A stretch of 64,000 nt of DNA from Escherichia coli. GTDB lineage: Bacteria; Pseudomonadota; Gammaproteobacteria; Enterobacterales; Enterobacteriaceae. The notes under the pieces are model-generated. The model was not told the DNA's origin. It saw nothing but the letters and a program-made list of their open reading frames with translations, and did not search any database. How positions within the stretch are numbered: position 1 is the stretch's first letter; every line of letters begins with the position of its first letter. The stretch lies in assembly GCA_009729775.1 (NCBI GenBank), contig GCA_009729775.1_4081.1, one strand, 5' to 3'. This document shows positions 27,945 through 50,143 of this stretch, in pieces. Position numbers and translations under genes: made by a program.

Positions 27945-27970
27945 AAAAAATCCCTGCCAAAAGACAGGGA
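27945..27970 (-). terminator. intrinsic terminator (TCCCTG/CAGGGA) plus U6 ending the 33.5-28.0 kb transcription unit
   Basis: perfect 6-bp stem, 8-nt loop, A6 on plus 27945-27950. Confidence 0.5.
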
Positions 27971-27990
27971 CGAAAAACTGAAATAACACA

Positions 27991-28055
27991 TGGAGTTCTT
28001 TTTAATTTAATAAAAAGTATTATTATTCTTATAAAAGTATTTATTAAGAACTCCA
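27991..28055. repeat. 10-bp perfect inverted repeat (TGGAGTTCTT / AAGAACTCCA) separated by ~45 nt of AT-rich DNA
   Basis: seen directly in the sequence between gene 28075..28263 and the terminator. Confidence 0.4.
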
Positions 28056-28074
28056 CAATATTGCTTCAAATGAA

Positions 28075-28263
28075 TCAAAAACCTTTCTGAGCTACTAGTT
28101 CACGGTACTGTGCACGAGTTAGTACACCTTGCTTGCGTAGAGCTTGTAGACCGGATAGGGTTTCACTCTTACGTTGTTCGTACATACGTTGTTCTTTGGA
28201 TTGAATAACTTTCTCTTTCTTAACTTTTGCTACTGGTTCTTGTTTCTTAGGTTGTTTAGCCAT
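28075..28263 (-). CDS. small basic protein with SHOCT-like C-terminal motif (62 aa)
   Basis: AAGGAG RBS; MAKQPKKQEPVAKVKKEK... then LSGLQALRKQGVLTRAQYRELVAQ; own promoter/operator upstream; GC ~40%. Confidence 0.55.
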   Translation of the reverse strand: MAKQPKKQEPVAKVKKEKVIQSKEQRMYEQRKSETLSGLQALRKQGVLTRAQYRELVAQKGF

Positions 28264-28294
28264 TTTATATCTCCTTCTGTATTATGATAACAAC

Positions 28295-28326
28295 ATTATA
28301 TCATGTATGGGACATAATGTCCCATA
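28295..28326 (-). promoter_or_regulatory. extended -10 promoter (TGaTATAAT) overlapped upstream by a 21-bp palindrome TATGGGACA-N3-TGTCCCATA (candidate operator)
   Basis: plus attatatca 28295-28303; palindrome 28306-28326; RBS and ATG of 28075..28263 follow. Confidence 0.5.
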
Positions 28327-28331
28327 CAATA

Positions 28332-29771
28332 TTACATATTTTCTTCAGCAAATTCAGCCAGTGGTGAACGAACAACACCTTCTAGTTCGATGACACGACA
28401 ACCTGCCCAGTCTTTAAACTTCTCAGTTACATATGTCAAACCACTGTTAACAGGACTAATAAACTTACTGTCAATCTGACTCAAGTTACCCATAATTACT
28501 ACTTTACAGTTTAACCCTGCTCGTGTCAAGATGGTTTTTGCTTGTGCAGGTGTAATGTTTTGGAATTCATCAACTACTAGAATAGTGTTGGTGAATGAAC
28601 GTCCACGTACAAAGTTTAGTGCTTTAAATTGAATAACATTACGTTTCATAATCTCTTCAATACTACCTTGTGGATTGGCATCATCTTTATGAAGAAACTC
28701 TAACGCATCAATCGCGGCTCCACAGAATGGAATCACTTTTTCTGCTTCTGAACCTGGCAAGAAACCAATATCTTCAAACTGTGAGTCTTGAGTTTTAGAG
28801 AAGATGATTCGGTCGTATTTACGTTTTTCCAGTACTAATTCTAATGCAGTAGCAATTGTAATTAGTGTTTTACCAGTACCAGCAGAACCTAGCAGTACTG
28901 TTAGATGTACATCAGGATCGAGAATACTGTTGATGGCGAGTGCTTGTTGGATATTCTTTGCTTTAATATCCCATACTTTAGCACGTAAAGCCACTGATTG
29001 TCCAATGTCTTGGAATACCAAAATATCTTCTGGTGTTAGTGTTCCATCATCTTCCTCAATTGCTGATTGTCCTTCGTACACAAATAATACGTCAGCATCA
29101 TCATATAGATAATCACCGATGCATAGATTTTGTGGAAGCAGATGTTCAATCAAGCTTTTAGAAATGTAATGATACAAACGACGACCAACTTGTTCGGATT
29201 GAATATTAGTATTGGTTAAGTTGCTGTATACTTCCCAAAAATTGATTTCCAGATGGTGTTGACCAATGTGAATCAAATCACTATCACCAATAACAATATC
29301 ATGGCGATAATCTTGTACCTCGACACCATAACTTAGTGCTTTGATACGCATGTTGATATCACGAGTTACCAGTACTGATTCTGTTGCTAAAGCTACCAGA
29401 ATGATTTTATCATCAGGTACAGTACTTTTGAGAAGGGTTTGAACTTTCTCTTCTGTACCTTTAGTACGAATTAGTGCCTCAGCTTCTTCGTTTGTAATAA
29501 CAAACAATTTGCTATCAGGATTCATATTGGTATGAACATCAGCAATATTAACACCAGTACTACTAATCTCGTCATGTGATGCATCTGCAATAATTGCTTC
29601 AATGTTACGAATAGCAACACGAGCATCGCGTGAAACATCTACATTACGACTCTTAATCGAATCTAATTCTTCCAGTACTGTAAATGGTAGAATGATTGCA
29701 GCACCATCAAAAGCAATAGATGCATTAGGGTCAGATAGTAGTACGTTTGTGTCAATTGTATATTTTTTCAT
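28332..29771 (-). CDS. phoH: PhoH2-type protein: N-terminal PIN domain fused to PhoH-like ATPase (479 aa)
   Basis: PIN signature (YTIDTNVLL, ILPFTVLEELD); Walker A VLLGSAGTGKT and PhoH-like C-terminal half. Confidence 0.85.
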   Translation of the reverse strand: MKKYTIDTNVLLSDPNASIAFDGAAIILPFTVLEELDSIKSRNVDVSRDARVAIRNIEAIIADASHDEISSTGVNIADVHTNMNPDSKLFVITNEEAEALIRTKGTEEKVQTLLKSTVPDDKIILVALATESVLVTRDINMRIKALSYGVEVQDYRHDIVIGDSDLIHIGQHHLEINFWEVYSNLTNTNIQSEQVGRRLYHYISKSLIEHLLPQNLCIGDYLYDDADVLFVYEGQSAIEEDDGTLTPEDILVFQDIGQSVALRAKVWDIKAKNIQQALAINSILDPDVHLTVLLGSAGTGKTLITIATALELVLEKRKYDRIIFSKTQDSQFEDIGFLPGSEAEKVIPFCGAAIDALEFLHKDDANPQGSIEEIMKRNVIQFKALNFVRGRSFTNTILVVDEFQNITPAQAKTILTRAGLNCKVVIMGNLSQIDSKFISPVNSGLTYVTEKFKDWAGCRVIELEGVVRSPLAEFAEENM

Positions 29772-29831
29772 AAAACATCCTTGAGTTATGAGTACATCCT
29801 TGTACTCGACTAATGTTATTGACTCGGATTA

Positions 29832-30134
29832 TTACATATTTGGTTCGTATTCAACATAGCAACGTGAACCTCGAACCTTTTCTTCCCAGCACTCCTGGTA
29901 AACAAGTTGACCAATTGAAACTGGTTCTCTTGATAGTCCATTACGTACTTCACCACTTTGGGTTTTATACATGAATGAACATTTGGACTCGCTACATTGT
30001 CCTAAACTAACAACTTCTGCGGTATTGTAGTGAATGTTGGTACGCTTAGTGTTCTCGTGATACTGTCCGAACCAAAGAACTCCTGCACCTAACAGAACAG
30101 TACAAATAAGACTTTTGATGTGTGTTTGAATCAT
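29832..30134 (-). CDS. small secreted or membrane-anchored Cys-containing protein (100 aa)
   Basis: N-terminal hydrophobic segment LICTVLLGAGVLWF; five Cys. Confidence 0.5.
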   Translation of the reverse strand: MIQTHIKSLICTVLLGAGVLWFGQYHENTKRTNIHYNTAEVVSLGQCSESKCSFMYKTQSGEVRNGLSREPVSIGQLVYQECWEEKVRGSRCYVEYEPNM

Positions 30135-30451
30135 AATGCGTTAAATCCATTGTTTAAGTATGTTTCAATATTAATTTTACCAACAGGATTACTACTGTGA
30201 ACAAAGTACTCAAACGGTTCTTTAATATTATTATCAAACATATAATCAATAAGAAACTTAGCAAAAGAATATCCAGTCTTTTCGTCTTCGCTCACATCAC
30301 CCAAGTCATGGTCGAATGATACAAATGCTGGAATTCCATTTTCAATAACATATTCACATGCACTTTTAAAGTCACGACATACCACCATATCTTGGTTTGG
30401 ATAATATAGATTTGCATCACGAATATCATCCAAAAACATTGCGTAAGACAT
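30131..30451 (-). CDS. hypothetical protein (106 aa)
   Basis: ORF track; ATGA overlap. Confidence 0.55.
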   Translation of the reverse strand: MSYAMFLDDIRDANLYYPNQDMVVCRDFKSACEYVIENGIPAFVSFDHDLGDVSEDEKTGYSFAKFLIDYMFDNNIKEPFEYFVHSSNPVGKINIETYLNNGFNAL

Positions 30452-30460
30452 GTTAAACTC

Positions 30461-31012
30461 CTATAGATAACTAATTAGTAAGTTTTCTTTTTGAATCAGA
30501 TACTCCAATTCTTGTTTTGCTGTACCGATGAAGTTCTGTGTCATAAGATTATTATATCCCGCTTCTCGATTTTGTCCCTTAGAATAACGAGAAATATGAC
30601 ATAAATTTACACCAGCAACTTCAGCACTCGCATGTTTAGCATTAGTGTATCCATCTCTAATGTGTTTCAACTCGTCATAGCTTACTTCATAGCTAAAACT
30701 ATGACTGTTTGCACCTGGGTAAATTTCAAAAGTTTTGAGTGGTCGAAGATGGGAAACAAAAATATTGTAATCCATTTCTTCTTGAACTTCACGACGCAAC
30801 GCATCTTCTAGTGAGATATCAGTACTTTCAACTGTTCCACCACATCCTCCTAGAAGTCCATCCCAACGTAATTGTAGTAATACCAGATTTACTTCTGGTA
30901 TATCATTTAACTCATAGTTTTTGTAAGGGTTGCATTTTCTTGCAAAGAAATAGCAAAATACAAAATTTGCACGTGAGCCATATTCACCAAAGGGAACTTC
31001 TTTAACACTCAT
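30461..31012 (-). CDS. Nudix-family hydrolase (183 aa)
   Basis: Nudix-box-like GGCGGTVESTDISLEDALRREVQEEMD (REVQEE core; spacing slightly atypical); start overlaps Sir2-like stop (ATGA). Confidence 0.6.
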   Translation of the reverse strand: MSVKEVPFGEYGSRANFVFCYFFARKCNPYKNYELNDIPEVNLVLLQLRWDGLLGGCGGTVESTDISLEDALRREVQEEMDYNIFVSHLRPLKTFEIYPGANSHSFSYEVSYDELKHIRDGYTNAKHASAEVAGVNLCHISRYSKGQNREAGYNNLMTQNFIGTAKQELEYLIQKENLLISYL

Positions 31013-31767
31013 TTCATACGTTCCTTAATTATAGTCTCTAGATGTGGTATTGCTTTGGTTGCTGGCTTGATAACTTTTTCATTAAACAAAAAATCATTAT
31101 CATTTTTACGAATGTTAACATTAACACTATAACATGGTAATGCTGCTGCTAATCTCGACCATACCAGTACTGTATCGCTACTACCAATTACAATAACTGT
31201 ATCATTTTCATTAAGAGATTTCAACACATTATTTCGTTCTTCGTAAATTGGTAAGCGTATACCATCAACATAACGATGATATTCTCCAATCATTACTACA
31301 TTTGGTTTAGCAAAAACATCATGTTTTGGTATGTATGGTTCGTATCCGCAGTTAATAACATTATAATCATCAGAATTGATACTATAATTTTCAATAACTT
31401 CACACAAGTTTCCATGAAGTTTAAGCTCATGACCACCAATACGAGTATAAAGATCGTCCATGTTAGAAGTCATATGAAGGAAGCAATCACCATATTGATC
31501 TTCTAACGATTTTATAAAATAATGCATTGCATTTGGTTCGCATTGTCCCAATTTTACACGTAATGTATTATAGAAAGAATGAACAACATGATATTTTGTA
31601 GTTAAACTAGCAATGTTACATACATCATTAATTTTAAATGTATCCCACAAACCATCATCAAATCGAAAAGGTTCCATCCCACTTTCAACGGAAAGTCCTG
31701 CACCTGATATAATCAGTAATCGTTTTTTACCTTCATTGCTTATAAATTTTTCTGATATCATATTCAA
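31009..31767 (-). CDS. Sir2-family (sirtuin-like, NAD-binding) protein lacking the Zn-ribbon (252 aa)
   Basis: ISGAGLSVESGMEPFR (GAGIS..SGIP.FR), TSNMDDLY (TQNID.LH-like), LHGN, VIVIGSS; no Cys4 module. Confidence 0.8.
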   Translation of the reverse strand: MNMISEKFISNEGKKRLLIISGAGLSVESGMEPFRFDDGLWDTFKINDVCNIASLTTKYHVVHSFYNTLRVKLGQCEPNAMHYFIKSLEDQYGDCFLHMTSNMDDLYTRIGGHELKLHGNLCEVIENYSINSDDYNVINCGYEPYIPKHDVFAKPNVVMIGEYHRYVDGIRLPIYEERNNVLKSLNENDTVIVIGSSDTVLVWSRLAAALPCYSVNVNIRKNDNDFLFNEKVIKPATKAIPHLETIIKERMK

Positions 31768-31770
31768 TCC

Positions 31771-31965
31771 TTATAAAAAACCAATTAAATATATTGATAA
31801 TAACAGAATGATTCCAATATGATAGGCATACATAAAATTATTATCTTTGTGATAACCATTGGATTTCAAGTCCCTGTATAAGCATTTAGCATTGTTATAA
31901 ATTACAACAATAAAAAAAACTATAAAAAAACTCAAAACCCATTCATAAATTGTGTATGCCATCAT
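31771..31965 (-). CDS. small membrane protein (64 aa, 2 TM)
   Basis: two hydrophobic helices; between HslV-like and Sir2-like genes. Confidence 0.45.
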   Translation of the reverse strand: MMAYTIYEWVLSFFIVFFIVVIYNNAKCLYRDLKSNGYHKDNNFMYAYHIGIILLLSIYLIGFL

Positions 31966-31989
31966 CTATTCTCTTATAATTATATAATT

Positions 31990-32586
31990 TTAATACTTTA
32001 AAACATCAAACTCGGCACTTACACTAGTTACATTATCACTGACAATTTTAAAAATTGATTTGATGCGTTCATGTAGTGGCACTTTTGATTCATTTTCAAC
32101 TTCAATATATGCTTGCATTGCTGCAATAGCATGATATGTTCCGCTACCTACGGCGGTGATTCGTGTTTTCGGTTGAAGAACTGAAAAATCTTCTTGAACT
32201 TCATAAATTGTATGATTGTGAAGAATGATGAACTGTCCACCACCTACTTCTTGTGAAGGATCACGAGAACCCCATTCCTCTTTGAACATTTGACGAATAA
32301 TAGGAATAACTTTCAGTACTAAGTACTGTGGAAACGTCTCATTTGCATCTTGCTGTGGTAGATTCAAACTGTAAGTAAGAAGTTGACCCATACGGAATGA
32401 TGTGGTGTAACCAATCGCCATAATTTCTTTTGTACGGGTCAAACCAGCATCATCATTGATTTTAATGAATTCTTTCTCAAATACTTTAGGCTCAGTTTGA
32501 ACGGACTTTGTGAACCCGTTACTTCCCAGTTTGTCCCCTGCAATAAAAGAAGTTACACCATCAGTGTGTGCAATGATACATGTCAT
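31990..32586 (-). CDS. HslV/proteasome-beta-like Ntn-hydrolase peptidase (~198 aa)
   Basis: start set to ATG 32584-32586 giving N-terminus M-TCIIAHTDGVTSFIAGD (cf. HslV TTIVSVRRNGHVVIAGDG, Thr1 nucleophile after Met removal) and RITAVGSGTYHAIAAMQA (cf. HslV LIAIGSGGPYAQAAARA); comparison with HslV from memory. Confidence 0.6.
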   Translation of the reverse strand: MTCIIAHTDGVTSFIAGDKLGSNGFTKSVQTEPKVFEKEFIKINDDAGLTRTKEIMAIGYTTSFRMGQLLTYSLNLPQQDANETFPQYLVLKVIPIIRQMFKEEWGSRDPSQEVGGGQFIILHNHTIYEVQEDFSVLQPKTRITAVGSGTYHAIAAMQAYIEVENESKVPLHERIKSIFKIVSDNVTSVSAEFDVLKY

Positions 32587-32843
32587 AAAATAGCTCCAAT
32601 TGCAAATAAAGTTGTATATAAAATATAAATCAATGTACCTAATAACATTAGACACACCAAATATGATGTTGCCAGAACATAATAAATTATTGCTTCAAAC
32701 TTTGAATTGAACTTCATTGTTGTGTTATCAATAAAGCCATTTTTGTAATCTTTGTAAATGAAAACTGTTAGGAAAAGTACAGTAATATACATCACTACTG
32801 TAGCATAAAAAATAATAGATGTCAAATTTTGGATGTTTGTCAT
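32583..32843 (-). CDS. small membrane protein (86 aa, ~3 TM)
   Basis: hydrophobic helices; stop overlaps the HslV-like start (ATGA). Confidence 0.5.
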   Translation of the reverse strand: MTNIQNLTSIIFYATVVMYITVLFLTVFIYKDYKNGFIDNTTMKFNSKFEAIIYYVLATSYLVCLMLLGTLIYILYTTLFAIGAIL

Positions 32844-32913
32844 AGTTATATAATCTCAATATAATTAATAACAAAGGAAGTACATCATAATCATCCTGTT
32901 ATTTTAATTATTT

Positions 32914-33522
32914 TTATTGTTTGACTGAACCGTAAAAAACCAGTTCTGGTTTTGTTAATATTACAACATCTTCACCACGCGAACGGCTAACTTTATATAG
33001 AACGTCTGGTGGAATTCCATTTGCAGAATATAGTGTAAATAGAAAACCTACTTTAGTTGCCATTTCTTCAGTAAAAGTTGATAGCTGCCTAACTGATACA
33101 AAAGAATTATCACCGTCTTTAACATTACTTTTAATAGAAATGTTATGAAGTCCCAGTACTGAGCGATTTATCATGTATCGCTTTTCAAAAGCTACACTGA
33201 AGAATACCACAGTACATGCTGAGTTGCAATACCTAGAAACAATTAAATTTATACCATTGTCTCTAACGAAGTTTGCCATTTTAATCCCAGCATCAAAATC
33301 ACCACCTGGCGATGTGATGGTAATGGTATCATAGTGTTCTTTATCATACAACTCCATCATACGCTTTAGTGACCCATCCGTAATATCTGAGATGAAATAT
33401 ACATTACGTGTTTCAGGATTGTACTTTATCACATTTTTACTTTCAACACCAGCACTGGCTGGAAAATTTATCAACATCAGAAGCATTACTGCTTGTACTA
33501 CCTCAAGCCATAGTCTTTTCAT
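32914..33522 (-). CDS. secreted ClpP/S49-fold serine peptidase-like protein (202 aa)
   Basis: signal peptide MKRLWLEVVQAVMLLMLINFPASAG; core ITSPGGDFDAGIKMANFV...CNSACTVVF...VLGLHNIS resembles the ClpP/SppA/NfeD pattern. Confidence 0.55.
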   Translation of the reverse strand: MKRLWLEVVQAVMLLMLINFPASAGVESKNVIKYNPETRNVYFISDITDGSLKRMMELYDKEHYDTITITSPGGDFDAGIKMANFVRDNGINLIVSRYCNSACTVVFFSVAFEKRYMINRSVLGLHNISIKSNVKDGDNSFVSVRQLSTFTEEMATKVGFLFTLYSANGIPPDVLYKVSRSRGEDVVILTKPELVFYGSVKQ

Positions 33523-33555
33523 AACAAATCCTTAATTTTGGTTAGGAAGATATAA

Positions 33556-33585
33556 ATAATATAGTACTTAAACACTTAAGTCAAA
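33556..33585 (-). promoter_or_regulatory. sigma70-like promoter TTGACT-17-TATTAT for the 33.5-28.0 kb operon
   Basis: minus-strand TTGACT (plus 33579-33584) and TATTAT (plus 33556-33561); AAGGA RBS before ATG 33520-33522. Confidence 0.4.
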
Positions 33586-34240: not shown

Positions 34241-34492
34241 TTCTACAGTATTAAGCTTCTGACAAATCATGTCAGCTTCTACTCGGTCTTTATAATAAAT
34301 GGTAAATCCAAATCTACTTGTTACCCTTTTCTCACTACGGTGTATACAGTTTACAATATAGTACTTATTATTTTGTGCAGAAAAACGCACTTCATAGTTT
34401 CGTTGAGAAATGTCATTATCATCAATAACAAACATTACTGTTATAAAAAATAATACTAATATTGATAGTAATCCAACAATCATAAATGTCAT
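34238..34492 (-). CDS. small membrane protein (84 aa)
   Basis: N-terminal TM helix IVGLLSILVLFFITVMFVI. Confidence 0.55.
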   Translation of the reverse strand: MTFMIVGLLSILVLFFITVMFVIDDNDISQRNYEVRFSAQNNKYYIVNCIHRSEKRVTSRFGFTIYYKDRVEADMICQKLNTVE

Positions 34493-34980
34493 TGATTCAT
34501 ACCCTTGTCATAAATGCAGTTAACAATAATCCCAGCATCTTCCAGTACTTTAATCGCTTCAGGTGGTGTTCGTGGATAACTTTTGTGATAAATTACACGG
34601 GTAATCCCACTACCTGCGATTAACTTAGAACAAGTATAGCATGGTTGTAGAGTTGTGTAAAGAGTTGCTCCTTGGCGTTCAGTAGGAGAACTATACAGTA
34701 AAGCGTTCATCTCTGCATGGATCTCATGAATATTACTCCACTCATGATGTTCATGTTTTGCTGCATCATCAACCCAGTCTTGAAAACGACCATCGTTCAC
34801 TAAATGTTGATTTACATCACAACAGTTTGGCTGCTTAGATGGCGTTCCATTGTATCCAGTACTCAATACTCTATTATTTTTAACAATAACACAACCAACT
34901 TTTTGTGAAATACATTTACTTTCCTCAGCAACTACTTCTGCTATCTTCAACCAAGTCGTATGTTTCATTATAAGCTCCAA
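34489..34980 (-). CDS. cd: deoxycytidylate (dCMP) deaminase
   Basis: HAEMNALL ... PCYTCSKLIAGSGI zinc signature; 163 aa. Confidence 0.8.
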   Translation of the reverse strand: MELIMKHTTWLKIAEVVAEESKCISQKVGCVIVKNNRVLSTGYNGTPSKQPNCCDVNQHLVNDGRFQDWVDDAAKHEHHEWSNIHEIHAEMNALLYSSPTERQGATLYTTLQPCYTCSKLIAGSGITRVIYHKSYPRTPPEAIKVLEDAGIIVNCIYDKGMNQ

Positions 34981-36880: not shown

Positions 36881-37576
36881 TTACACCCACTCTTCCACGC
36901 CACCGCGACGCTTAACTAAGTACTTACCTTCTTCATTGCGTGGCCCAAGAATAATACCATCGATGAAACCATGTTCACCATATTCAAGAGCTTCTTCTGC
37001 ATTTAGCCACAAATCACGGTCTGCATCTTTAAGTAGTTGTTCGTGTGTTACACCAACTGCTTCTGCAATTTCTTTAGTCAATAGAGTGTTTAGGGCATCA
37101 GAATGTTTAAGTGAAATCTTCTGGTCAGTAATTAGACCTTGTGTACCAGAACTTACTTGGTGACACATGAAATAAGAACGCTTACCACCTAAACGGAAAC
37201 CTTTAGTGCCAATTACAGATTGTGTATAGCAACCCATTGATGCTGCATAGCCCATTACTACTGTGCGAATTGGCGAAATACAAGACTTGGCAACATCTGC
37301 AATACCCAAACCTGCGTGTACTGAACCACCAGGAGAACTAATGTAAAATGTAATAGGGGAATCACCTTGTGAATCTAGCCAAACCAATTGTTGTTTGATG
37401 ATATGTGCCATTTGATCATTAAAGTCAGTATCAAGGAAAATGATACGGTCTTGCATCATTCGAGATGCTAGATCATATGTACGCTCTGACCCATTAACTT
37501 TTTCAACTACATAAGGAATAGAAATGTTACGTACTTCACCACCAGCATAACCACCAAAATTGAATTGTTCAACCAT
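36881..37576 (-). CDS. clpP: ClpP-like ATP-dependent protease proteolytic subunit (231 aa)
   Basis: YISSPGGSVHAGLGI ... MGYAASMGCY (Ser) ... YFMCHQVSSGTQG (His); not in a morphogenesis context. Confidence 0.8.
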   Translation of the reverse strand: MVEQFNFGGYAGGEVRNISIPYVVEKVNGSERTYDLASRMMQDRIIFLDTDFNDQMAHIIKQQLVWLDSQGDSPITFYISSPGGSVHAGLGIADVAKSCISPIRTVVMGYAASMGCYTQSVIGTKGFRLGGKRSYFMCHQVSSGTQGLITDQKISLKHSDALNTLLTKEIAEAVGVTHEQLLKDADRDLWLNAEEALEYGEHGFIDGIILGPRNEEGKYLVKRRGGVEEWV

Positions 37577-46746: not shown

Positions 46747-46991
46747 TATAATAAACCTCTCACATAAAACATTGATGAAAATAGATAATCATTAGTACTT
46801 GTGTTTAGTTGTTTAGAAAAGTTATATTTTTTATCTTTATTTTCGTATAAAGACAATCTATAGAACATTTCTATATTTTCTAAGTATTCTTTTTGTAACA
46901 ACATCTGTGTTTTTACATTCATTATAATATACCTTAAAAGAAAAAGGGACCAACATATGATCCCTTTTGTATTAGAAATTTCCTTCTGCAA
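46746..46991 (-). CDS. hypothetical small protein (start uncertain; track start is TTG inside pseT 3' end)
   Basis: ORF track; probable true start at internal ATG (MNVKTQ...). Confidence 0.35.
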   Translation of the reverse strand: MQKEISNTKGIICWSLFLLRYIIMNVKTQMLLQKEYLENIEMFYRLSLYENKDKKYNFSKQLNTSTNDYLFSSMFYVRGLL

Positions 46992-47904
46992 CTTGCATTA
47001 CTTTCAAGCCAAGTAGCTTACGCCACATGAATACAACTTGATCGCGGTCATCATAAACCTTTTTAACATCGTAATGATCAACCACATTTTTCATGTACAG
47101 GTCGAATTTTACAACATCATCGGGACGTTTATCATCTATGTCTCGCATAAACAATGCATCGTAAGGAATACCCCAATTCTTAAGCCACTGTTCGGTATCA
47201 GCACGACACCCTTCAGTACGCCCACTCATGACGATAATCTTGCGTTTATGAAAAACTGCTTCAGCGATAATAGACAAAATAACTTCTTCATCTGGTGTAT
47301 CCTGAAGAACAGTACTTTCATCGTAAGGATTACGACCCCATTTATGAGCAAGAGTACCGTCAATATCAACGATAACAGCAGCTTCTCGTGAATTACCATA
47401 GTAACCAATGTGCATGGCCTTACTATAATAGTACGTATCTGCCATAGTGTCAATGATATTATCTTGTACTGAACGCTCACGCATGAGGTTACGTTTCTTA
47501 CAAAGTTTTACGAACTCTTTAATCTTAAAGAAAACATGAACATCTGCACCACGATCTTCATTCGGTACAAAATCTTCGTAGAAGTTCTTTTCTTTGTAGT
47601 CGTATTCATTATCTTTAGCCCAACGTTTCCATTCATCACGGAAATGTTGTTTAAGGTTCGTATCGGACACAATGATGTTCCAACCATTCTCTGCTGCTGA
47701 ATTTGCTGCACTGAACTGCATTTTAGTTACGTACTGCTCATTAGCGTCGTTGAATTTGTATGCATCATGTGACCCTGCCATTGATTCTCGAATGTCATCA
47801 CGGTTAATGTTGATAGTCTTCGATTTGGCATTTTTAATTTCTTGAACTGCCCATGTGGTTTTACCACAACCAGGCAACCCAACTGTTAGTGTAATAGTTG
47901 GCAT
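46972..47904 (-). CDS. pseT: polynucleotide 5'-kinase / 3'-phosphatase
   Basis: Walker A GLPGCGKTT; HAD phosphatase motif VIVDIDGTLA; overall resemblance to T4 PseT (from memory) including C-terminal QVAEGNF; AAGGAG RBS. Confidence 0.9.
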   Translation of the reverse strand: MPTITLTVGLPGCGKTTWAVQEIKNAKSKTININRDDIRESMAGSHDAYKFNDANEQYVTKMQFSAANSAAENGWNIIVSDTNLKQHFRDEWKRWAKDNEYDYKEKNFYEDFVPNEDRGADVHVFFKIKEFVKLCKKRNLMRERSVQDNIIDTMADTYYYSKAMHIGYYGNSREAAVIVDIDGTLAHKWGRNPYDESTVLQDTPDEEVILSIIAEAVFHKRKIIVMSGRTEGCRADTEQWLKNWGIPYDALFMRDIDDKRPDDVVKFDLYMKNVVDHYDVKKVYDDRDQVVFMWRKLLGLKVMQVAEGNF

Positions 47905-49000: not shown

Positions 49001-50143
49001 CTAAAAATCCTTTAGTACAATTTTCATGTATTTTATAAGAGTCTCTTTGTAATCAACTTTCTTATTGTTATACATTGCAAAGGCCAAGCCCTGACGATTC
49101 AGTTCATTAGTTAAACACTCCTGAACCTTCATTGCGAATTCCTTTCGCTCCAAGTGCTTGTGTTCCTTGACGAAGCTTTCTACTTCATCTTGTAATGCAT
49201 TATAGCACGAAAATACCAATTGTTCCATTCTTAATATCTTTTGCATAGCATATTCATCAGTACTGAACAATTGTTTTAAATCATCACTAGAACCATTTAA
49301 TACTGCTTCATATAAATGAGAATCAATAATAATACTATCTTTTGTAAGATGTAATGAACTGTACCAGTCAGTCTTTATTTTACACATTGTCCCATTATTT
49401 AGGATGCACACAAAACCCTCAATATCAAGCATTTTATGAACTTCCTCCACGCTTTCACGGAAGGTATTTCGTACCGGAAAAGTGTGATGAATATCTTTTC
49501 CAGTCATATTAGTACTGTACTGTGCAAGACATGGAAACTTATCACGTAGTGCTTTACCACATAGCAACTCACCACTCACACGATGACGAACGTTCAGTAC
49601 AAACAGTTGTTCTACCTGATATGGTAATACAATTCGGTACTCTGGGCTTGTATACTCCATATTAACTGTGTAACCTAAACGTTCCGCTTCGTCGATGTAC
49701 TGATACAAATTCTGGTTCTCGTTAATAAGTCGAGTACTGTTAATCGCATGGTCAGAGTACAATGCAGTATGTGATTTACAACGAATCTCACCATCATTAT
49801 CACGGTAAGTACTGATTACTGAACCATCCAACTTAGGCATCACTACTGCAATGTCATTACATGTGGTGTTGGCAGGGAACATTGTAGCAGGATTCTCATA
49901 AGCATTAAAGAACTTTTTCATAGTACGGGCAGCACAACGAATCATTTCACCTTCTTCATCAATTTCCCACATAGATCCACGGGTTTCTAATGCATTGGGT
50001 TGCATGAAATCAGTATATGATGCTAGTCGGTAACTGAATACACGATACGTGCCACCAGCAGGACTTTTATGATCTACATAAAAGAACGCATCGTTTGTAT
50101 TACATAAGTGCATTAAATCTTCATATATTTGCAAAAGGGTCAT
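49001..50143 (-). CDS. rnlA: RNA ligase 1 (T4 Rnl1-like)
   Basis: N-terminus and KxDG adenylation motif (MPKLDGS) closely parallel T4 RnlA as I recall it; 380 aa; AGAGGT RBS. Confidence 0.9.
   Translation of the reverse strand: MTLLQIYEDLMHLCNTNDAFFYVDHKSPAGGTYRVFSYRLASYTDFMQPNALETRGSMWEIDEEGEMIRCAARTMKKFFNAYENPATMFPANTTCNDIAVVMPKLDGSVISTYRDNDGEIRCKSHTALYSDHAINSTRLINENQNLYQYIDEAERLGYTVNMEYTSPEYRIVLPYQVEQLFVLNVRHRVSGELLCGKALRDKFPCLAQYSTNMTGKDIHHTFPVRNTFRESVEEVHKMLDIEGFVCILNNGTMCKIKTDWYSSLHLTKDSIIIDSHLYEAVLNGSSDDLKQLFSTDEYAMQKILRMEQLVFSCYNALQDEVESFVKEHKHLERKEFAMKVQECLTNELNRQGLAFAMYNNKKVDYKETLIKYMKIVLKDF

Follow-up and report, generated by a model that had tools for sequence, protein, structure and literature searches.

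A conserved Sir2–Nudix–cREC–PIN-PhoH core in a lineage-variable gene block of Rak2-like jumbo phages

Why a jumbo phage should place two predicted peptidases, a sirtuin, a Nudix hydrolase and a PIN-PhoH protein in a single run of genes, and whether such a run acts as a unit, is the question raised by positions 27,945 to 33,585 of a 64,000-nucleotide stretch of DNA (hereafter the window) deposited under Escherichia coli (assembly GCA_009729775.1, contig GCA_009729775.1_4081.1). A first-pass annotation had read this region as a ten-gene operon and a candidate module for host take-over or anti-defense. All ten open reading frames (ORFs) were confirmed on the minus strand between a sigma70-like promoter and a strong terminator, and the description of their content as accessory, neither morphogenetic nor replicative, was right. 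The 5.7-kb region matches Escherichia phage 121Q (NC_025447), a Rak2-like jumbo phage of 348 kb in the genus Asteriusvirus, over its full length at 99.4% identity. It recurs at ~95% identity in about twenty more E. coli and Salmonella jumbo phages, and phage Turkey3 aligns with the whole block at 81% identity (megablast). We use the 121Q gene numbers throughout; the 121Q RefSeq record names gene 473 'protease (ClpP-like)', 475 'peptidase HslV family', 476 'Sir2', 477 'nudix hydrolase', 479 'membrane protein' and 480 'PhoH-like'.

As a whole, the ten genes do not form a conserved unit. The invariant part consists of five genes, encoding Sir2, Nudix, cREC, gp479 and PIN-PhoH, which lie in the window as follows.

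31009..31761, minus strand: gp476, a CobB-like (class III-like) sirtuin without Zn-ribbon cysteines; the first core gene
30461..31012, minus strand: gp477, a Nudt16-like Nudix hydrolase, its gene ATGA-coupled to that of Sir2
30131..30451, minus strand: gp478, a cREC (cyclic-phosphate-processing receiver-like) domain protein of 106 aa
29832..30134, minus strand: gp479, ~100 aa, with an N-terminal hydrophobic stretch and four invariant Cys, its gene ATGA-coupled to that of cREC
28332..29771, minus strand: gp480, a PIN-PhoH (PhoH2-type) predicted RNA helicase/RNase

A scan of IMG/VR with a Nudix alignment returned five loci, too few for statistics, and GenBank phage records were therefore used. 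The comparison covered 11 Rak2-like loci from at least six genera: 121Q, Turkey3, EJP2, Munch, the uncultivated virus genome (UViG) L006, Hallingskeid, RaK2, GAP32, Serratia BF, Erwinia SNUABM_12 and Yersinia fHe-Yen9-04. In all 11, the five core genes are contiguous and kept in the same order. In four of these phages, representing three genera (GAP32, BF, SNUABM_12 and fHe-Yen9-04), Nudix and cREC form one polypeptide with cREC at the C terminus. The remaining genes behave differently: the ClpP-like gene is found in five lineages only (121Q, Turkey3, EJP2, Hallingskeid and RaK2), the HslV-like gene is present in 121Q, Turkey3, EJP2, Munch and UViG L006 but absent from RaK2, GAP32, BF and Hallingskeid, and both transmembrane (TM) genes are limited to 121Q and Turkey3. 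Thus, when co-occurrence was checked, the proposed ten-gene module stood for its five core genes, whereas the ClpP-like, HslV-like and TM genes proved lineage-variable. As a separate observation, Munch-like phages carry a 122-aa ORF without a Pfam match between Sir2 and Nudix (L012:8620-8988 and L006:9620-9985), which breaks the ATGA coupling of the 121Q type.

Homology and structure searches bore out the fold calls of the first-pass annotation (ClpP-fold, HslV-like N-terminal nucleophile (Ntn) peptidase, Zn-ribbon-less Sir2, Nudix and PIN-PhoH), and alignments of the sirtuin, Nudix, cREC and PIN-PhoH proteins show intact catalytic motifs in the core. The sirtuin gp476, a single-domain protein of 250 aa, matches PF02146 (3.7e-20, 73.1 bits against a cutoff of 24), and its closest structures in the Protein Data Bank (PDB) are those of CobB (6rxj/1s5p, ~1e-22). 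Residues G20-A21-G22, N100, D103 and H116 are invariant in four diverged orthologs. The Zn-ribbon CxxC...CxxC is absent: between the catalytic His and the FGE loop, 121Q has two non-conserved Cys, and none there is invariant across orthologs. The NCBIfam CobB model NF040867 scores 4.5e-24 and 85 bits, under its equivalog cutoff of 320, and the PADLOC SIR2 effector models gave no match at E <= 0.01. Judged by its sequence, gp476 is CobB-like and not a defense-type SIR2. It resembles CobB and class III sirtuins in its NAD-binding motifs, catalytic His, length and best similarity, but differs from CobB in having lost the Zn-ribbon cysteines and in a context of RNA and ADP-ribose (ADPR) enzymes rather than acyl-CoA synthetase regulation. 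Phage sirtuins as a whole occur in 975 phage records.

The Nudix protein gp477 matches PF22327 (8.3e-19, 68.5 bits against a cutoff of 27) and NUDIX (7e-7), and its nearest solved relatives are the RNA-decapping X29/NUDT16 enzymes (PDB, 2e-12). All four residues of its Nudix box REx2EE (R74, E75, E78 and E79) are invariant, and the family is found in 75 phage records, nearly all of them Rak2-like. Two further proteins had at first been described simply as small. One of them, gp479, is indeed a small Cys4 protein, whereas the ORF at 30131-30451 (gp478) is a cREC protein, matching PF20274 at 1.8e-22 (80.3 bits against a cutoff of 27), with DD and DxD acidic residues that are invariant even when the rV5 cREC is included. 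In gp479, C47, C52, C82 and C92 and the GQC and GQxVY motifs are invariant in nine orthologs, with no Pfam, NCBIfam or PADLOC match. An exhaustive search of 1.84 billion proteins found 20 representatives of this family, and a word-index search found four near-identical sequences; the 'membrane' label of gp479 reflects a short hydrophobic stretch that falls short of a Kyte–Doolittle (KD) 1.6 19-mer. Finally, gp480 combines PIN_4 (8e-20, residues 4-156) with PhoH (7e-44, residues 269-473; PDB 3b85, 2e-22). Orthologs, 68-95% identical, all keep the four acidic residues of PIN and both Walker motifs (A, GSAGTGKT; B, VDEFQ), the NCBIfam PhoH2 model NF053827 scores 2.6e-44 and 151.9 bits, under its equivalog cutoff of 680, and PADLOC returned trivial P-loop matches only (Nhi and AbiO). 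The protein shares its domain order with mycobacterial and other bacterial PhoH2 proteins, with PIN acidic residues and Walker motifs intact, but it is phage-encoded, has a long PIN-PhoH linker and has no evident antitoxin-like partner.

The first-pass annotation had supposed that this gene combination was not described as a unit. That is wrong, because a 2022 publication covers the core (with a 2H gene but not the Cys4 protein), and the 121Q RefSeq record names its genes. Iyer et al. 2021 defined cREC and called jumbo-phage PIN-PhoH 'enigmatic' (PMC7824862). Section 3.7.3 of Iyer, Burroughs, Anantharaman & Aravind 2022 (Viruses 14:1977; PMC9503650) then describes a jumbo-phage neighborhood of sirtuin, 2H, Nudix, cREC and PIN. 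According to its account, the type-1 sirtuin neighborhood has Serratia phage BF as its prototype, Nudix and cREC are sometimes fused, the predicted function is NAD+-dependent RNA repair with the sirtuin acting like KptA/Tpt1, and cREC, an experimentally uncharacterized family, occurs in up to 18% of jumbo phages (PMC9503650). The 121Q core shows the published sirtuin-Nudix-cREC-PIN linkage and is orthologous to the BF locus (L007), but the linked 2H gene was not found in the 64-kb window. Clade and order are the same, with identities of 44-63% for Sir2, 45-55% for Nudix, 61-66% for cREC and 68-80% for PIN-PhoH, whereas the 121Q window lacks 2H, encodes Nudix and cREC separately and adds the ClpP-like, HslV-like and two TM genes. 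Neither the gp479 Cys4 protein nor the PhoH half of the PIN protein is highlighted in that paper's treatment of the neighborhood (PMC9503650). Two other published configurations were also confirmed: in rV5-like phages, Rnl1, cREC and Sir2 lie in a row next to polynucleotide kinase (PNK) and a phosphoesterase, and in T5-like phages Sir2 is followed by a HAD 'Swiss-army-knife RNA repair' domain (HAD-SAK). The core has therefore been predicted computationally before, and the genome that carries it is published and annotated; the present analysis adds no tested function.

What might the core do? Following Iyer et al. 2022, we infer an NAD+-consuming RNA-end-processing pathway, which we regard as the most likely single mechanism, although our preference for it is tentative. 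In such a pathway, damaged RNA would be ADP-ribosylated on a phosphate by the sirtuin at the expense of NAD+; opening of a 2',3'-cyclic end leaves a 2'-phosphate, which is the predicted target. The ribose 2''-OH, activated by the catalytic His, would resolve the adduct as in Tpt1/KptA, releasing ADP-ribose cyclic phosphate. The cREC protein would linearize cyclic phosphates, whether at RNA ends or in the ADP-ribose cyclic phosphate by-product; the Nudt16-like Nudix would split the ADP-ribose pyrophosphate to AMP and phosphoribose; and PIN-PhoH would unwind or trim RNA. Sealing could be carried out by enzymes encoded elsewhere in the window, and the two peptidases would stand outside the pathway. 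The window encodes a T4-type Pnkp at 46972-47904 on the minus strand (HAD_PNKP, 1.9e-43) and a T4 Rnl1-type RNA ligase at 49001-50143 on the minus strand (RNA_lig_T4_1, 4.8e-15; T4_Rnl1_C, 6.8e-17). These two genes share the strand of the sirtuin block, lie 13-19 kb away from it and make up what is predicted to be a complete tRNA-repair kit.

Several lines of evidence are consistent with RNA-end processing: the invariance of the core in the 11 loci, the Nudix-cREC fusion, the retained catalytic residues, the presence of Pnkp and Rnl1 in the window, and the finding that in the unrelated rV5-like and T5-like phages, too, members of this sirtuin clade independently accompany RNA-end enzymes. The individual steps also have precedents. 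NUDT16 cleaves conjugated ADP-ribose at the pyrophosphate bond (PMC8883491), and the passages on Tpt1 in PMC11417386 and PMC9503650 describe a two-step chemistry of NAD+-dependent ADP-ribosyl transfer followed by formation of a 1'',2''-cyclic phosphate. Tpt1 chemistry may parallel that of sirtuins, and the core would be analogous to the Tpt1/KptA pathway with its processing of Appr>p, including the downstream cyclic-phosphodiesterase and pyrophosphatase steps. The resemblance would be one of chemistry: gp476 has the sirtuin Rossmann fold and Tpt1 the ADP-ribosyltransferase (ART) fold, with no relation in sequence or fold.

Other considerations weigh against such a pathway. Because the 11 loci come from one collinear phage clade, much of the conservation of gene order may reflect inheritance rather than selection. 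A Tpt1-like step is not obviously needed, since T4-type Pnkp removes 2',3'-cyclic phosphates and leaves no 2'-phosphate. PIN nucleases are metal-dependent and make no cyclic ends, so a role for PIN in repair is hard to place. The 2H partner of the published neighborhood is missing from the 121Q window, and where it does occur it points to signal degradation rather than RNA repair, because it belongs to the Acb1 anti-CBASS family. We found no experiment in the literature on phage sirtuins, cREC, gp477-type Nudix or Nudix anti-Thoeris enzymes. Finally, the best sequence matches of gp476 are protein deacylases.

This last point bears on a different possibility, in which gp476 would be a CobB-type lysine deacylase or a protein ADP-ribosyltransferase that reprograms host or phage proteins early in infection, with Nudix and cREC clearing by-products in the form of O-acyl-ADP-ribose or ADP-ribose. 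The best matches of gp476 are indeed CobB/SIRT5-type deacylases, at the PDB and NCBIfam scores given above, and its NAD-binding and catalytic residues are all retained. A host-type promoter suggests early expression, and the by-products fit as well, given that sirtuins yield O-acetyl-ADP-ribose and that NUDT16 cleaves the ADP-ribose pyrophosphate bond (PMC8883491). However, gp476 has no Zn-ribbon cysteines, which in canonical sirtuins give the peptide-binding cleft its shape, and the CobB score lies at 85 of the 320 bits required of an equivalog. Reprogramming of proteins would also leave unexplained the repeated linkage of these sirtuins to RNA ligase, PNK, HAD-SAK, cREC and PIN-PhoH. We consider this possibility unlikely.

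The genes immediately upstream of the core in sister phages raise the further question of whether the locus serves counter-defense. NatV-NadV (NARP2) lies upstream of Sir2 in all sampled lineages except the 121Q type (121Q and Turkey3), in a position between the ClpP-like gene, where present, and Sir2. Except in the 121Q type and RaK2, Sir2 is directly preceded by a 2H gene (9 of 11 sister loci; absent from Turkey3 and RaK2), so that the order in sister loci is NARP2 ... Acb1-like - Sir2 - Nudix - cREC. The GAP32 representative of the 2H gene (gene 118, L011:7500-7946, 148 aa) matches the Acb1 anti-CBASS family PF23474 at 5.7e-16 (59 bits against 27); homologs occur in L002, L003, L006, L007, L008, L012 and L013, and the gene is annotated as 'RNA ligase' or 2H. 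We did not find this Acb1-family match of the gene beside Sir2 in the sections of the literature that treat the neighborhood. The 64-kb 121Q-type window contains no homolog of the GAP32/BF 2H gene and no NARP2 genes. Among the best 45 NadV tblastn matches, every sister genus is represented, at 51-79% identity, and there is no 121Q-type genome. The peptidases, NARP2 and the Acb1-like gene are all found in EJP2, and the 121Q layout therefore looks like an EJP2-like arrangement minus NARP2 and 2H. Loss of NARP2 and the Acb1-like gene thus seems to have occurred in the 121Q/Turkey3 lineage, which has kept the NAD+-using sirtuin. In short, these two counter-defense elements adjoin the core upstream in sister genera, whereas both are absent from the 121Q window.

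On this basis, Sir2, Nudix and cREC might target immune signals, whether derived from NAD+ or made of cyclic nucleotides, or the by-products of these signals (gcADPR, cyclic ADP-ribose (cADPR) isomers, ADPR-cyclic phosphate or cyclic oligonucleotides), or the sirtuin might ADP-ribosylate a host defense protein, while PIN-PhoH would remove host defense RNAs; the locus would then be an anti-defense island. Apart from Turkey3, which has the 121Q layout, every sampled sister lineage has NARP2 immediately before the core, and NARP2 has been shown experimentally to defeat Thoeris and DSR2 (bioRxiv 10.1101/2024.02.11.579819), and the Acb1-family 2H phosphodiesterase adjoins the core in most NARP2-bearing sister lineages. 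In other phage contigs, distant HslV-like homologs lie near Gad1/Gad2, Acb1, NARP1/2, NADAR, ARH and YAcAr. In addition, the text of PMC7824862 concerned with cREC and Nudix predicts that they degrade cADPr-type signals. However, a CobB-like sirtuin without a PADLOC SIR2 match, and one that would consume NAD+, is of no obvious help against NAD+ depletion, and none of the ten proteins matches a known anti-defense family. The evidence from adjacency is drawn from collinear relatives. Moreover, the 121Q lineage retains the core with both NARP2 and the Acb1-like gene apparently lost, which indicates that the core does not depend on them. We therefore view counter-defense as possible but rather doubtful as the function of the core. 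The link to NAD-depletion defenses drawn in the first-pass annotation survives in an indirect form only: the sirtuin itself does not support it, and what does is the presence of NARP2 and the Acb1-like gene upstream in sister phages, both of them missing here.

If RNA-end processing by the core is the most likely mechanism, what are the peptidases doing beside it? The four variable genes upstream of the core are the following.

32914..33522, minus strand: gp473, a predicted ClpP-fold serine peptidase bearing a hydrophobic helix (signal or anchor) at its N terminus
32583..32843, minus strand: gp474, a small multi-pass membrane protein, hydrophobic at residues 6-32 and 49-86, its gene ATGA-coupled to that of gp475
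31990..32586, minus strand: gp475, an HslV/BPH/proteasome-beta-like Ntn peptidase
31771..31965, minus strand: a 64-aa two-pass membrane ORF between gp475 and Sir2, with two hydrophobic segments

By sequence, gp473 is a weak match to its family (Pfam CLP_protease, 0.0069 and 16.7 bits against a cutoff of 20.2; NCBIfam ClpP, 2.8e-5). Its S71-P-G-G, S101 and H126 are invariant and align with the oxyanion loop, Ser and His of ClpP, while no counterpart of the third catalytic residue, Asp, was recognized. In an AlphaFold2 (AF2) model with a predicted local distance difference test (pLDDT) score of 79.9, the top Foldseek matches are all ClpP (best 2.7e-8, TM-score ~0.6). A single-sequence PDB search returned spurious GFP-like matches only and was set aside for profile and structure searches. 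The model thus indicates a ClpP fold with Ser and His at ClpP-like spacing, and gp473 is a predicted peptidase. Its description as secreted held insofar as the N-terminal hydrophobic helix carries an ASA-G motif, which is the sole basis for the term. A second ClpP-related gene, annotated as a head maturation protease (121Q gene 464), lies at 36881-37576 on the minus strand, 3.4 kb from gp473, and the window therefore carries two distinct ClpP-fold proteins. With this separate protease present, and with its own N-terminal hydrophobic helix, gp473 is unlikely to be a prohead protease.

The start of gp475 is the ATG at 32586 (Met-Thr...), not the GTG at 32655. It matches phrog_1040 (1.5e-24) without Pfam support, and a profile of 73 homologs finds HslV in the PDB at 6e-10, aligned from Thr1. 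M1-T2, D18 and K34, equivalent to the Thr nucleophile and to Asp17 and Lys33, are invariant in the 73 sequences. The AF2 model (pLDDT 92.9) matches HslV in Foldseek at 2e-10 and BPH with a TM-score of 0.73; against the HslV equivalog TIGR03692, the score is 18.3 bits, below the cutoff of 157.75. Neither the block nor the window as annotated in RefSeq shows a gene for an HslU/ClpX-type ATPase. The two peptidases are therefore like ClpP on the one hand and HslV, BPH and Anbu on the other in fold and catalytic residues (Ser/His for gp473; Thr1/Asp/Lys for gp475), but differ from ClpP and HslV in their sub-cutoff sequence scores, the lack of an ATPase partner and, for gp473, the N-terminal helix. 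Pfam and PHROG profile searches gave no family match for gp474. The 64-aa ORF has an intact homolog in Turkey3 (48% identity; tblastn, 1.8e-17), and the matching 223 nt of NC_025447 are unannotated.

Outside the Rak2-like phages, the HslV-like family is found in 197 phage records, including T5-like Epseptimavirus. Among nine metagenomic contexts of HslV-like homologs (30-40% identity), six have PhoH within 3 kb; these counts are not independent, because several contigs look interrelated. In four contigs from T5-like or other phages (L020, L027, L028 and L030), a ClpP-like protein is encoded next to the HslV-like one or one small ORF away. The four ClpP-like proteins are mutually homologous (1e-16 to 1e-42) and weakly match the gp473 profile at the SxGG, C-x-S-x-x-T and H motifs. 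A dCMP deaminase lies within about 2.5 kb of the PhoH, ClpP-like and HslV-like set in L027, L028 and L030, and Gad2 is present in L030. In the T5-like Salmonella phage Seafire (L031), Sir2, PhoH, the HslV-like gene and a NadR+PnuC pair lie within 24 kb; NadR+PnuC is the NARP3 gene combination, by annotation only. These observations suggest that in large virulent phages PhoH, both peptidases and NAD+ genes recur in loose proximity. The peptidases are outside the conserved core, yet they are not randomly placed.

As a side observation, dCMP deaminase is a frequent neighbor of HslV-like genes in unrelated phage contigs. In the window, two separate dCMP/cytidine deaminase-like genes flank the block, one at 34489-34980 on the minus strand and the other where 121Q gene 490 lies, at about 24.3-24.7 kb.

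Whether the block is transcribed as a unit can be considered from its spacing and regulatory elements. The inter-gene gaps are, in order, 70, -4, 24, 9, -4, 9, -4, 60 and 68 nt. The ATGA-type coupling previously noted corresponds to the three -4 nt overlaps, at gp474/gp475, Sir2/Nudix and cREC/gp479, and the core genes are closely packed. The remaining features are listed below.

33556..33584, minus strand: sigma70-like promoter TTGACT-17-TATTAT upstream of gp473, 10 of 12 consensus matches
28295..28323, minus strand: internal promoter GGGACA-17-TATAAT with TG, overlapping the palindrome GTATGGGACATTATGTCCCATAC; kept in Turkey3
28075..28263, minus strand: gp481, a 62-aa basic protein (16 K+R, 6 D+E) on its own promoter
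27950..28069, minus strand: operon end, a long hairpin (arms GGAGTTCTT/AAGAACTCC plus flanks) followed by an intrinsic terminator

The sigma70-like promoter was found as first annotated, facing a divergent gene pair upstream. Promoter-like matches are common in this AT-rich DNA (50 in the region against 39 +/- 6 in shuffles), and the consensus match alone therefore means little; the -35 TTGAC is invariant in 121Q, Turkey3 and EJP2, in a spacer that is otherwise 65% identical. The internal operator-promoter before gp481 was likewise confirmed. Here the palindrome GTATGGGACATTATGTCCCATAC is followed by TGATATAAT, both kept in Turkey3, and the -10 element is extended. RaK2 has a terminator and a TTGACA/TATAAT promoter at the same position, which argues that gp481 is a separate transcription unit. 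Homologs of gp481 come after PhoH in most lineages. The suggestion that gp481 is SHOCT-like did not survive, as its match to PF09851 (E 0.013, 15.6 bits) falls short of the cutoff of 27. The terminator at 27971-27950, with a 9-bp stem and a T-run, is the best in the region, and Turkey3 keeps it in full, stem included. Directly upstream of it lies the long hairpin (27979-28069, minus strand) with an AT-rich loop, and the RNA fold of hairpin plus terminator has an energy of -36.2 kcal/mol (z = -5.8). The gp481-g482 spacer is 93% identical to that of Turkey3, above the 81% for the whole block. Taken together, the five-gene core and the four lineage-variable genes upstream of it appear to share a transcript that starts at a host-type promoter.

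A further alternative is that the block is no functional unit at all but a set of neighboring early accessory genes in a long co-directional stretch, their order conserved by descent. Nearly every gene annotated for the window in the matching 121Q record has the same orientation, so the shared strand of the ten is unremarkable. The flanking gp481, g482 and dCMP deaminase genes are syntenic across genera too, the peptidase and TM genes vary between lineages, and in Seafire Sir2, PhoH and the HslV-like gene are scattered over 24 kb among nucleotide-metabolism genes. Against mere descent stand the Nudix-cREC fusion, the ATGA overlaps at two core junctions, the independent adjacency of Sir2 and cREC in rV5-like phages, and the contiguity of the five core genes while everything upstream reshuffles. 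We consider the absence of any functional unit improbable, and the least likely of the explanations discussed here.

RNA-end processing by the core can be extended to a broader and more speculative proposal, which we think unlikely to hold in full. In this proposal, gp476 would be the first nucleic-acid-acting sirtuin, a Tpt1-like RNA phosphate ADP-ribosyl-transferase working with cREC and Nudix, and together with NARP2 and the Acb1-type phosphodiesterase would form a conserved 'NAD+ economy / counter-immunity' island of Rak2-like jumbo phages. The 121Q lineage would have swapped NAD+ salvage for the membrane-associated ClpP-like/HslV-like pair, whose recurrence beside PhoH in T5-like phages would hint at a PhoH-protease link.

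In summary, the question of what phage sirtuins do is real and testable, and it is not newly exposed by the 121Q block. If the predicted chemistry were confirmed, RNA phosphate ends would be a new substrate class for sirtuins, the cREC domain would have its first activity, and the presence of a sirtuin in nearly a thousand sequenced phages would be explained. New counter-defense functions could reasonably be sought at this locus, given its physical linkage to NARP2 and Acb1 in sister phages, and the 121Q type, apparently without NARP2 and the Acb1-like gene, provides a natural variant for comparison.

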